From assembly GCF_003334405.1 (NCBI RefSeq), contig NZ_QOWM01000005.1: 64,000 nt of DNA; one strand, given 5' to 3'. This DNA is from Escherichia coli (GTDB lineage Bacteria > Pseudomonadota > Gammaproteobacteria > Enterobacterales > Enterobacteriaceae). Both the position numbers and the translations under genes were made by a program. The notes under the pieces were generated by a model. It had not been told where the DNA came from and made no database searches. It saw only the letters and a list, made by a program, of their open reading frames with translations. Numbering within the stretch: the stretch's first letter is position 1; each line of letters begins with the position of its first letter. Shown here piece after piece: positions 281-60,716 of the stretch.

Positions 281-370
281 CGTAGGTCGGATAAGACGCC
301 CCGGCGTCGCATCCGACAATGTGCAGGCGTTGATGCCGGATGCGGTGCAAGCACCTTATCCGGCCTACAG
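281..370. repeat. REP/BIME element (two inverted REP units)
   Basis: Sequences cgtaggtcggataagacgc...gcgtcgcatccgaca and gccggatgcgg...ccttatccggcctac, the canonical E. coli REP palindromes, in intergenic phnD-phnE. Confidence 0.85.
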
Positions 371-20536: not shown

Positions 20537-22587
20537 TGAGCGCGCTCAACTCCCTGCCATTACCGGTGGTCAGGCTGCTGGCGTTCTTTCATGAAGAGTT
20601 AAGCGAGCGGCGACCAGGTCGCGTGCCGCAGACCGTGCAACTCTGGGTAGGCTGCCTGCTGGTGATTCTGATCTCGATGACCTTTGAGATCCCTTTTGTG
20701 GCGTTATCGCTGGCAGTGCTGTTTTACGGTATTCAGTCGAACGCGTTTTACACCAAATTTGTCGCGATCTTGTTTGTGGTTGCCACGGTGCTGGAGATCG
20801 GCAGCCTGTTTTTGATCTACAAATGGTCATACGGCGAACCGTTGATCCGATTGATCATCGCCGGACCGATCCTGATGGGCTGCATGTTTTTGATGCGCAC
20901 CCATCGCTTGGGGCTGGTCTTTTTCGCCGTCGCCATTGTCGCTATTTACGGGCAAACCTTCCCCGCCATGCTCGACTATCCGGAAGTGGTCGTGCGCTTA
21001 ACGCTGTGGTGTATCGTTGTTGGCCTCTATCCAACCTTGCTGATGACGTTAATCGGCGTGCTGTGGTTTCCCAGTCGTGCCATTTCGCAAATGCATCAGG
21101 CGCTTAATGATCGGCTTGATGATGCCATTAGTCACCTGACAGACAGCCTCGCACCGCTACCCGAAACGCGGATTGAAAGAGAGGCGCTGGCGCTACAAAA
21201 ACTCAATGTCTTTTGCCTCGCGGACGATGCCAACTGGCGAACTCAAAACGCATGGTGGCAAAGCTGCGTGGCAACGGTAACCTACATTTACTCGACGCTG
21301 AATCGCTACGATCCCACCTCTTTTGCTGATTCTCAGGCAATTATTGAATTCCGACAAAAATTAGCTTCAGAAATCAACAAGCTGCAGCATGCCGTTGCTG
21401 AAGGTCAGTGCTGGCAAAGCGACTGGCGGATCAGTGAAAGTGAAGCGATGGCGGCACGGGAATGTAACCTGGAGAATATCTGCCAGACGTTGTTACAACT
21501 GGGTCAGATGGACCCGAATACGCCGCCAACGCCCGCAGCCAAACCGCCATCAATGGCCGCCGATGCTTTTACCAATCCAGACTATATGCGCTACGCGGTA
21601 AAAACGCTGCTCGCCTGTTTGATCTGTTACACCTTTTACAGCGGCGTGGACTGGGAAGGCATTCACACCTGTATGCTGACATGCGTGATCGTCGCTAACC
21701 CAAATGTCGGTTCGTCGTACCAGAAGATGGTGCTGCGTTTTGGCGGGGCCTTTTGCGGCGCGATTCTGGCGCTGTTATTCACGCTACTGGTCATGCCCTG
21801 GCTGGACAATATTGTCGAATTGCTGTTTGTGCTGGCACCGATTTTCCTGTTGGGCGCATGGATTGCCACCAGCTCTGAACGCTCTTCTTATATCGGCACA
21901 CAGATGGTGGTCACCTTCGCGCTCGCCACGCTCGAAAACGTTTTTGGCCCAGTGTACGACCTGGTGGAAATTCGCGATCGCGCCCTGGGTATCATCATTG
22001 GTACCGTGGTGTCCGCGGTGATTTACACCTTTGTCTGGCCTGAAAGTGAAGCGCGCACACTGCCGCAAAAACTGGCTGGCACGCTGGGTATGTTAAGTAA
22101 AGTAATGCGGATCCCACGCCAGCAGGAAGTCACGGCTCTGCGCACTTATCTGCAAATTCGTATCGGTCTGCATGCGGCGTTTAATGCCTGTGAAGAGATG
22201 TGCCAACGCGTGGCGCTGGAGCGTCAACTGGACAGCGAAGAACGCGCATTACTGATTGAACGTTCGCAAACGGTTATTCGTCAGGGCCGCGATCTTCTTC
22301 ACGCCTGGGATGCCACCTGGAACTCGGCGCAGGCGCTGGATAACGCACTACAGCCGGACAGAGCAGGTCAGTTTGCCGACGCCCTGGAGAAATACGCTGC
22401 CGGTCTGGCAACCGCACTCAGCCGTTCTCCTCAAATAACGCTTGAAGAGACACCCGCCTCTCAGGCCATCCTGCCCACCTTATTAAAACAGGAGCAACAC
22501 GTCTGCCAGCTTTTCGCCCGCTTGCCAGACTGGACAGCCCCGGCATTAACGCCCGCCACGGAACAGGCACAAGGAGCCACGCAATGA
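20536..22587 (+). CDS. mdtO: Multidrug efflux inner membrane component (FUSC/aromatic acid exporter-like)
   Basis: 683-aa ORF overlapping mdtN stop (TAATG). Confidence 0.92.
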   Translation: MSALNSLPLPVVRLLAFFHEELSERRPGRVPQTVQLWVGCLLVILISMTFEIPFVALSLAVLFYGIQSNAFYTKFVAILFVVATVLEIGSLFLIYKWSYGEPLIRLIIAGPILMGCMFLMRTHRLGLVFFAVAIVAIYGQTFPAMLDYPEVVVRLTLWCIVVGLYPTLLMTLIGVLWFPSRAISQMHQALNDRLDDAISHLTDSLAPLPETRIEREALALQKLNVFCLADDANWRTQNAWWQSCVATVTYIYSTLNRYDPTSFADSQAIIEFRQKLASEINKLQHAVAEGQCWQSDWRISESEAMAARECNLENICQTLLQLGQMDPNTPPTPAAKPPSMAADAFTNPDYMRYAVKTLLACLICYTFYSGVDWEGIHTCMLTCVIVANPNVGSSYQKMVLRFGGAFCGAILALLFTLLVMPWLDNIVELLFVLAPIFLLGAWIATSSERSSYIGTQMVVTFALATLENVFGPVYDLVEIRDRALGIIIGTVVSAVIYTFVWPESEARTLPQKLAGTLGMLSKVMRIPRQQEVTALRTYLQIRIGLHAAFNACEEMCQRVALERQLDSEERALLIERSQTVIRQGRDLLHAWDATWNSAQALDNALQPDRAGQFADALEKYAAGLATALSRSPQITLEETPASQAILPTLLKQEQHVCQLFARLPDWTAPALTPATEQAQGATQ

Positions 22588-24050: not shown

Positions 24051-24058
24051 AATGTCTG

Positions 24059-24090
24059 CCGCGTGATGGCTGTCACGCGGTATTTCGTTT
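24059..24090 (+). terminator. Probable intrinsic terminator after mdtP
   Basis: ccgcgtga-tggctg-tcacgcgg followed by tatttcgttt. Confidence 0.55.
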
Positions 24091-24110
24091 CGTCACGTCA
24101 AAACTGACGA
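24090..24110 (+). promoter_or_regulatory. Inverted repeat TCGTCA-N9-TGACGA about 105 bp upstream of the fdhF sigma-54 element; candidate enhancer (FhlA UAS)
   Basis: Palindrome read directly; position relative to the -24/-12 element fits a sigma-54 activator site. Confidence 0.4.
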
Positions 24111-24180
24111 CAGCCTGTTTTTCGTCAGAGTTTTGAATAAATAGTGCCCGTAATATCAGGGAATGACCCCACATAAAATG

Positions 24181-24196
24181 TGGCATAAAAGATGCA
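24181..24196 (+). promoter_or_regulatory. Sigma-54 (-24/-12) promoter of fdhF
   Basis: TGGCATAAAAGATGCA matches TGGCAC-N5-TTGCA with exact GG...GC spacing, 50 bp upstream of fdhF ATG. Confidence 0.8.
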
Positions 24197-24247
24197 TACT
24201 GTAGTCGAGAGCGCGTATGCGTGATTTGATTAACTGGAGCGAGACCG

Positions 24248-26395
24248 ATGAAAAAAGTCGTCACGGTTTGCCCCTATTGCGCATCAGGTTGCAAAATCAA
24301 CCTGGTCGTCGATAACGGCAAAATCGTCCGGGCGGAGGCAGCGCAGGGGAAAACCAACCAGGGTACCCTGTGTCTGAAGGGTTATTATGGCTGGGACTTC
24401 ATTAACGATACCCAGATCCTGACCCCGCGCCTGAAAACCCCCATGATCCGTCGCCAGCGTGGCGGCAAACTCGAACCTGTTTCCTGGGATGAGGCACTGA
24501 ATTACGTTGCCGAGCGCCTGAGCGCCATCAAAGAGAAGTACGGTCCGGATGCCATCCAGACGACCGGCTCCTCGCGTGGTACGGGTAACGAAACCAACTA
24601 TGTAATGCAAAAATTTGCGCGCGCCGTTATTGGTACCAATAACGTTGACTGCTGCGCTCGTGTCTGACACGGCCCATCGGTTGCAGGTCTGCACCAATCG
24701 GTCGGTAATGGCGCAATGAGCAATGCTATTAACGAAATTGATAATACCGATTTAGTGTTCGTTTTCGGGTACAACCCGGCGGATTCCCACCCAATCGTGG
24801 CGAATCACGTAATTAACGCTAAACGTAACGGGGCGAAAATTATCGTCTGCGATCCGCGCAAAATTGAAACCGCGCGCATTGCTGACATGCACATTGCACT
24901 GAAAAACGGCTCGAACATCGCGCTGTTGAATGCGATGGGCCATGTCATTATTGAAGAAAATCTGTACGACAAAGCGTTCGTCGCTTCACGTACAGAAGGC
25001 TTTGAAGAGTATCGTAAAATCGTTGAAGGCTACACGCCGGAGTCGGTTGAAGATATCACCGGCGTCAGCGCCAGTGAGATTCGTCAGGCGGCACGGATGT
25101 ATGCCCAGGCGAAAAGCGCCGCCATCCTGTGGGGCATGGGTGTAACCCAGTTCTACCAGGGCGTGGAAACCGTGCGTTCTCTGACCAGCCTCGCGATGCT
25201 GACCGGTAACCTCGGTAAGCCGCATGCGGGTGTTAACCCGGTTCGTGGTCAGAACAACGTTCAGGGTGCCTGCGATATGGGCGCGCTGCCGGATACGTAT
25301 CCGGGATACCAGTACGTGAAAGATCCGGCTAACCGCGAGAAATTCGCCAAAGCCTGGGGCGTGGAAAGCCTGCCAGCGCATACCGGCTATCGCATCAGCG
25401 AGCTGCCGCACCGCGCAGCGCATGGCGAAGTGCGTGCCGCGTACATTATGGGCGAAGATCCGCTACAAACTGACGCGGAGCTGTCGGCAGTACGTAAAGC
25501 CTTTGAAGATCTGGAACTGGTTATCGTTCAGGACATCTTTATGACCAAAACCGCGTCGGCGGCGGATGTTATTTTACCGTCAACGTCGTGGGGCGAGCAT
25601 GAAGGCGTGTTTACTGCGGCTGACCGTGGCTTCCAGCGTTTCTTCAAGGCGGTTGAACCGAAATGGGATCTGAAAACGGACTGGCAAATCATCAGTGAAA
25701 TCGCCACCCGTATGGGTTATCCGATGCACTACAACAACACCCAGGAGATCTGGGATGAGTTGCGTCATCTGTGCCCGGATTTCTACGGTGCGACTTACGA
25801 GAAAATGGGCGAACTGGGCTTCATTCAGTGGCCTTGCCGCGATACTTCAGATGCCGATCAGGGGACTTCTTATCTGTTTAAAGAGAAGTTTGATACCCCG
25901 AACGGTCTGGCGCAGTTCTTCACCTGCGACTGGGTAGCGCCAATCGACAAACTCACCGACGAGTACCCGATGGTACTGTCAACGGTGCGTGAAGTTGGTC
26001 ACTACTCTTGCCGTTCGATGACCGGTAACTGTGCGGCACTGGCGGCGCTGGCTGATGAACCTGGCTACGCACAAATCAATACCGAAGACGCCAAACGTCT
26101 GGGTATTGAAGATGAGGCATTGGTTTGGGTGCACTCGCGTAAAGGCAAAATTATCACCCGTGCGCAGGTCAGCGATCGTCCGAACAAAGGGGCGATTTAC
26201 ATGACCTACCAGTGGTGGATTGGTGCCTGTAACGAGCTGGTTACTGAAAACTTAAGCCCGATTACGAAAACGCCGGAGTACAAATACTGCGCCGTTCGCG
26301 TCGAGCCGATCGCCGATCAGCGCGCCGCCGAGCAGTACGTGATTGACGAGTACAACAAGTTGAAAACTCGCCTGCGCGAAGCGGCACTGGCGTAA
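24248..26395 (+). CDS. fdhF: Formate dehydrogenase H (selenocysteine/molybdopterin enzyme); in-frame UGA at 24665-24667 decoded as Sec
   Basis: ORFs 24248..24667 and 24716..26395 are in the same frame, separated only by TGA; combined 715 aa; N-terminal CPYCASGC Fe-S motif; SECIS hairpin follows the TGA. Confidence 0.93.
24665..24710 (+). other. SECIS element (selenocysteine insertion stem-loop) immediately 3' of the UGA
   Basis: tgacacggcccatcggttgcaggtctgcaccaatcggtcggtaatggc, stem-loop directly downstream of in-frame TGA. Confidence 0.8.
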
Positions 26396-27180: not shown

Positions 27181-27672
27181 TAGGCCTGATAAGACGCGGC
27201 AAGCGTCGCATCAGGCATTGATGTCGGATGCGGCGTAAACGCCTTATCCGACCTACAAAATCACGCTAAATCAGGCTATTGCGCTGTCTGGCGTAGGCCT
27301 GATAAGACGCGTTAAGCGTCGCATCAGGCGTTGATGTCGGATGCGGCATAAACGCCTTATCCGACCTACAAAATCACGCTAAATCAGGCTATTGCGCTGT
27401 CTGGCGTAGGCCTGATAAGACGCGGCAAGCGTCGCATCAGGCGTTGATGTCGGATGCGGCGTAAACGCCTTATCCGACCTACAAAATCACGCTAAATCAG
27501 GCTATTGCGCTGTCTGGCGTAGGCCTGATAAGACGCGTTAAGCGTCGCATCAGGCGTTGATGTCGGATGCGGCATAAACGCCTTATCCGACCTACAAAAT
27601 CACGCTAAATCAGGCTATTGCGCTGTCTGGCGTAGGCCTGATAAGACGCGGCAAGCGTCGCATCAGGCATTC
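27181..27672. repeat. Tandem REP/BIME array: about 4.3 copies of a 113-bp unit
   Basis: Unit starts (taggcctgataagacgcg) at 27181, 27294, 27407, 27520, 27633; each unit holds two inverted REP palindromes; copies differ at a few positions. Confidence 0.9.
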
Positions 27673-60693: not shown

Positions 60694-60716
60694 GCATTAC
60701 AAGAATCATGCCAAAA
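60694..60716 (-). promoter_or_regulatory. Candidate sigma-54 promoter of pspG (TGGCATGATTCTTGTA on minus strand) with IHF-like site just upstream (60721-60735)
   Basis: TGGCAT-N5-TTGT on minus strand about 32 bp upstream of pspG ATG; -12 element is TTGT not TTGC, so match is imperfect. Confidence 0.5.

Follow-up and report, generated by a model that had tools for sequence, protein, structure and literature searches.

The window (the whole 64,000-nucleotide stretch of Escherichia coli DNA that was analysed) carries the fdhF gene together with its complete, previously described control apparatus, a reading to which we assign a probability of roughly 97%. What carries it is the identity of the gene, the continuity of its frame across an internal TGA, the match of a SECIS model directly around that codon, the signs of selection on RNA structure, and the conservation and fixed spacing of promoter and enhancer. 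The whole locus represents long-established biology of a model gene and there is nothing new in it: it was on fdhF, as the model, that the recoding of UGA as selenocysteine in bacteria and the SECIS hairpin were elucidated, and its promoter serves as a standard case of a sigma-54 promoter induced by formate. Its interest here is that recoding and enhancer-dependent promoters can be recognised from raw sequence, as the initial annotation of fdhF illustrates. The gene and the elements inside it are located as follows.

24248..26395, + strand: fdhF coding sequence, 715 codons plus TAA (translation, RefSeq, PDB, NCBIfam)
24660..24714, + strand: SECIS element (Rfam RF01988 SECIS_2; fold; synonymous-site entropy)
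24665..24667, + strand: in-frame UGA, codon 140, decoded as selenocysteine (PDB 1AA6 X140; TGA conservation)

Gene identity and genomic setting

The product of 24248..26395 is formate dehydrogenase H, a selenoprotein with Mo-bisPGD and 4Fe-4S cofactors that forms part of the formate hydrogenlyase complex. The translation is identical to formate dehydrogenase H in the PDB over 715/715 residues, with X at position 140 (the chains matched are 1AA6, 1FDO, 1FDI, 2IV2 and 7Z0T), and scores 1089 bits against the NCBIfam model TIGR01591 (FdhF type; curated cutoff 666.25), the match spanning residues 6-685. The cysteines of the N-terminal 4Fe-4S motif fall at C8, C11, C15 and C42 of the translation, as they do in the solved protein. 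The RefSeq annotation of a K-12 derivative runs one CDS straight through the internal TGA and names it fdhF, 'formate dehydrogenase subunit alpha'. The annotation, the family score and the structural match all agree with the identity first proposed for this gene.

Gene order in the window is that of mdtO-mdtP-fdhF-yjcO on the E. coli chromosome; RefSeq places mdtO-mdtP upstream of fdhF in the K-12 derivative, and yjcO and gltP downstream. E. coli K-12 fdhF (b4079) encodes the same 715 residues with a non-standard residue 140, sits in the same mdtP-fdhF-yjcO order behind the same sigma-54 motif (site OS41, see below), and differs in nothing of substance from the copy in the window. At the DNA level, 24000-26450 matches strain 300709 without a difference (100% over 2451 bp) and the K-12 derivative at 99.9% identity. 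The region is found in 5420/5426 complete E. coli genomes, where the annotation is always mdtP then fdhF.

Two strains deserve a remark of their own. In E. coli Ec-U18 (NZ_CM192145.1), which matches 44% of the query, gltP adjoins a truncated 'molybdopterin-dependent oxidoreductase', an arrangement which indicates that a deletion probably took the 3' part of fdhF together with yjcO. Strain 300709, considered as the origin of the entire window, was rejected: it carries an IS150 insertion in aphA and its nrfE is frameshifted, whereas the window has no transposase-sized ORFs at the matching position and its nrfE ORF is intact.

Codon 140 and the SECIS element

The ORF list shows fdhF as two ORFs, 24248..24667 and 24716..26395, as is usual for selenoprotein genes, which get split by ORF callers. 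The two share one frame since the offset between them, 468, is divisible by 3, and the translation of 24248-26395 contains a single internal stop, the TGA at codon 140 (24665-24667). Both the split and the continuous 715-residue frame through this TGA had been proposed in the initial annotation, and both are confirmed. The UGA aligns with X140 of PDB 1AA6, the chains being otherwise identical. In the orthologous fdhF loci that we retrieved from 80 species of Enterobacteriaceae, codon 140 reads TGA without exception (80/80) and constitutes the only stop in the first 600 codons, and amino-acid identity to E. coli downstream of it is at least 85%. It follows that no homologue in this set ends at codon 139; all 80 species keep an intact downstream frame. 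The TGA at codon 140 codes for an amino acid and does not end the protein.

One might still regard the TGA as a true stop or a nonsense mutation, so that the locus would be a pseudogene or would comprise two genes, of 139 and 559 aa. The two entries in the ORF list can be read in this manner, and Ec-U18 bears a truncated copy that is annotated only as a molybdopterin oxidoreductase. However, a codon that is TGA in every one of the 80 species, with no further stop and with downstream amino-acid identity of at least 85%, contradicts such an origin, as do the match to the SECIS model, the single CDS in RefSeq and the existence of a solved full-length structure with the same sequence; a full-length protein containing selenium, as in PDB 1AA6, excludes it. 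We consider the chance that the codon is a genuine stop to be negligible.

The codon is followed by the stem-loop that had been described 3' of it. Rfam model RF01988 (SECIS_2) matches 24660-24714 with 87.1 bits (E = 7.7e-19; gathering score 70), covering model positions 1-55 of 55 with standard pairs throughout and no difference from the model, whereas the related model SECIS_3 attains only 35.8 bits at this hairpin against a threshold of 63. The upper stem-loop, GGUUGCAGGUCUGCACC, occupies 24679-24695, with the apical loop GGUC at 24686-24689. This loop starts 18 nt past the UGA, inside the range of 16-37 nt downstream of the UGA given for bacterial SECIS apical loops (PMC10778597).

Synonymous variation is strongly reduced across the same stretch. 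In a set of 81 sequences, third-position entropy averages 0.24 bits over codons 141-153 versus 0.92 bits over the remaining degenerate codons up to codon 300, and the twelve 13-codon windows with the lowest entropy in this range all overlap the SECIS. Codons 144-149, which encode the upper stem-loop, are each represented by one codon in all 81 sequences; free variation within the SECIS is confined to two sites where the lower stem joins, nt 12 and nt 33 past the U of UGA. The SECIS is under selection on its RNA sequence beyond what the protein needs, and it is this loss of synonymous variation, along with the 87.1-bit model match, that substantiates the stem-loop.

Folding energy tells us less. 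A fold of 24665-24710 does return a stem-loop, at -14.9 kcal/mol, so that the hairpin suggested in the initial annotation is present, but its stability cannot be told apart from that of shuffled sequence (z = -1.33; 22/200 shuffles equal or better). Stability alone is therefore unremarkable, and the presence of a stable hairpin does not discriminate. We dropped free energy as a test for the SECIS because it was not significant against shuffles, and used the covariance model and the synonymous-site analysis instead; suppressed synonymous-site variation, and not hairpin free energy alone, is what identifies the element.

The sigma-54 promoter and the upstream activating sequence

Upstream of the coding sequence we distinguish the following control elements.

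24090..24110, no strand assigned: upstream activating sequence, part 1, TCGTCA-CGTCA-AAAC-TGACGA, putative FhlA site (exact match, conservation, matrix)
24119..24128, no strand assigned: part 2 of the upstream activating sequence, TTTTCGTCAG, in which the CGTCA half-site occurs for the third time (conservation, repeats D3 and I6)
24181..24196, + strand: sigma-54 promoter, TGGCATAAAAGATGCA (pattern match, ChIP-seq OS41, conservation)
24207..24247, + strand: predicted 5' untranslated region, a 41-nt leader (direct reading)

The promoter has the form TGGCAC-N5-TTGCW, with its doublets GG at 24182-24183 (-25/-24) and GC at 24194-24195 (-13/-12) ten bases apart. TGGCATAAAAGATGCA is the sole match to TGGCAY-N6-TGCW in the window; as chance would yield about 1.1 of them, the pattern alone is not significant. 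An RpoN matrix built from 186 promoters and scanned over the whole window, where it is not specific on its own, gives the fdhF promoter 13.5 bits and third rank, with two positions scoring higher. It is external evidence that establishes 24181-24196 as a sigma-54 site, with in vivo occupancy taken from the literature. ChIP-seq site OS41, GTGGCATAAAAGATGCA, lies upstream of fdhF, and transcription is predicted to begin 41 bp ahead of the gene (PMC4591121), which corresponds to 24207 in the window; the mark 'C' given to OS41 in the same source (PMC4591121) is taken to mean a previously confirmed promoter. The orthologous site in Salmonella was bound in ChIP-chip, fdhF expression there is 29-fold sigma-54 dependent, and FhlA is listed as the activator (PMC3844500). 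Across species, TGGCA-N7-TGC is found upstream of fdhF in 78/80. The -24/-12 element assigned to 24181-24196 at the outset is thus upheld by OS41 and by its conservation.

Two species lack promoter parts. In Entomohabitans teleogrylli (L078, 1240-1500) the -12 element is missing, in Leclercia sp. 29361 (L082, 1240-1500) the whole -24/-12; the enhancer is degenerate in both, and the fdhF ORF, TGA and SECIS are intact in both. Elsewhere in the window, the top match to the RpoN matrix is TGGCAGACGTGTTGCT (15.1 bits; 22493-22508, - strand), which lies within mdtO in antisense orientation and does not figure in the ChIP-seq tables in the main text of PMC4591121. The match ranked fourth, TGGCATGATTCTTGTA (60698-60713, - strand), is already known as the pspG sigma-54 promoter (ChIP-seq site OS40), so that the window has a second enhancer-dependent promoter.

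Part 1 of the upstream activating sequence consists of two overlapping dyads with a common right arm: an outer one, TCGTCA-N9-TGACGA, and an inner one, CGTCA-N4-TGACG (24096-24109). The outer dyad is exact at 24090-24110, where 0.16 matches would be expected by chance, and is centred 107 bp upstream of the start at 24207. The compound element TCG(A/T)CA-CGTCA-N4-TG(A/T)CGA is present in 75/81 sequences. Among these 75, the inner dyad is perfect in 71 and the outer in 23 (19 in the E. coli-like form, four as TCGACA...TGTCGA); most species have TCGACA as the left arm of the outer dyad (24090-24095). The N4 spacer occurs in eight variants between arms that are fixed. Part 2, TTTTCGTCAG, is inverted relative to TGACGA, 24104-24110 pairing with 24122-24128; its identity across 64 aligned species is at least 90%, and it keeps a fixed 32-nt offset from part 1 in 70/75.

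Spacing is constrained as well. The distance between the element and TGGCA is 91 bp in 64 sequences, 82-83 bp in eight and 92 bp in three, unlike the distance from promoter to ATG, which varies from 51 to 84 bp. The upstream activating sequence as a whole extends from 91 to 53 bp upstream of TGGCA, or from about -117 to -79 relative to the predicted start, and so fits the position of roughly 70-150 bp upstream of the sigma-54 promoter expected of FhlA-type sites (PMC3844500). The initial annotation had the position of the enhancer right, and its palindrome is real; the outer dyad that it drew is not the conserved unit, being perfect in only 23/75 sequences. The conserved unit is the inner dyad plus TTTTCGTCAG.

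Which protein uses these sites? According to secondary literature, FhlA binds upstream of fdhF, and from this together with the conservation we infer that the half-site cluster at 24090-24128 serves FhlA as its upstream activating sequence at fdhF. A matrix derived from 13 characterised FhlA sites (TGWC-N6-GWCA; PMC7658346) finds its best intergenic match on the inner dyad, with 8.4 bits, a score surpassed at over 25 other positions of the window, so that the matrix alone proves nothing. A 16-mer FhlA consensus, CATTTCGTACGAAATG (PMC4987338), is matched at best at 9/16 positions anywhere upstream of fdhF. Other promoters offer a comparison: the hycA/hypA intergenic region, hydN and hyfA have, like fdhF, TGGCAY-N6-TGCW with clusters of GTCA/GTCG/CGAC half-sites upstream. 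At K-12 hycA/hypA the cluster, which is related to the fdhF motifs and lies between divergent sigma-54 promoters, comprises TCGTCG, TGTCGACG and TCGACA. The arrangement of half-sites nevertheless differs among FhlA-dependent promoters, and within the four regions examined the exact CGTCA-N4-TGACG is found only at fdhF.

Two alternatives concern this enhancer, one its architecture and the other its binder. The functional dyad might be the outer TCGTCA-N9-TGACGA (24090-24110) and not the inner dyad plus TTTTCGTCAG. It is perfect in E. coli, four species change in concert to TCGACA...TGTCGA, so that the outer dyad is regained at the expense of the inner, and none of the 75 element-bearing species is without both dyads. 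Yet the outer dyad is imperfect in 52/75 whereas the inner is perfect in 71/75, and it is to the inner dyad that the published FhlA matrix (TGWC-N6-GWCA) aligns; we therefore find the outer dyad an unlikely candidate, though one to be taken seriously. Considerably less probable still, to the point of being a long shot, is that some regulator besides FhlA, such as a nitrate- or molybdate-responsive factor, occupies the cluster in its place. Effects on fdhF or the formate regulon have been attributed to NarL and ModE (PMC2636881), and in absolute terms the match to the FhlA matrix is a weak one. However, the fixed 91-bp spacing is to a sigma-54 promoter, which needs an enhancer-binding ATPase, the sources consulted all name FhlA as the activator of fdhF, and hyc/hyp share the same motif vocabulary. 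FhlA acting at the inner dyad and TTTTCGTCAG remains our preferred reading.

Combining these elements with what is established for fdhF suggests the following course of events. Sigma-54 RNA polymerase would sit on the -24/-12 element (24181-24196) as a closed complex. FhlA, whose gene is elsewhere in the genome, would on activation by formate assemble on the CGTCA/TGACG half-sites at 24090-24128 and contact the polymerase via DNA looping, ATP hydrolysis then opening the promoter so that transcription would start near 24207. On meeting the UGA at codon 140, the ribosome would find the downstream SECIS (24660-24714) bound to SelB loaded with Sec-tRNA(Sec); selenocysteine would be inserted without termination, yielding a 715-residue enzyme in which Sec140 would ligate the molybdenum centre. 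Binding by FhlA, looping, SelB binding and molybdenum ligation are drawn here from established knowledge. For fdhF it is established that SelB with Sec-tRNA(Sec) binds the upper stem-loop and brings selenocysteine to the UGA, and that Sec140 of formate dehydrogenase H is a ligand of the molybdenum centre is established from the structure.

Other elements between mdtP and fdhF and elsewhere in the window

Two further features were recorded in the intergenic region.

24057..24082, + strand: terminator-like hairpin, CCGCGTGA / TCACGCGG, followed by a T-rich tail (inverted repeat I2)
24146..24160, no strand assigned: partly conserved block cCGTAa..TC between enhancer and promoter, about -61 to -47 (cross-species alignment)

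The hairpin at 24057..24082 follows the mdtP stop codon and belongs to the upstream gene, even though it falls inside the coordinates originally given for fdhF; it is not conserved beyond Escherichia and a few other genera. For the block at 24146-24160 we considered IHF as a binder and found this unsupported: the fit to the IHF consensus is loose, and the literature found ties IHF to hyc/hyp and not to fdhF.

Within the leader, a Shine-Dalgarno GGAG at 24236-24239 lies eight bases before the ATG. A small hairpin, GCGC-GTAT-GCGT, occupies 24211-24222, around +5 to +16 of the predicted transcript. In E. coli its fold is weak (z = +0.88). The GCGC/GCGY stem recurs in Escherichia, Citrobacter, Kluyvera, Klebsiella and Salmonella, with loops that vary (GTAT, AAAT, GTGT, GCAA, GAGA, GTAG); at the same place Franconibacter has a longer, different hairpin and Enterobacter a short leader without one. 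There is a slim chance that the enhancer constitutes a compound site whose dyads trade off across Enterobacteriaceae, and that the block at 24146-24160 and the hairpin at 24211-24222 are regulatory parts not previously described, although all of this may equally be known already.

Elsewhere, the window contains Rfam matches to naRNA4, a REP-type repeat, at 27183-27592, 38128-38198 and 285-365 (- strand). Those between yjcO and gltP comprise four copies at an even spacing of about 113 nt. A match to the small RNA sraL (153 bits) lies at 45436-45576 on the + strand.
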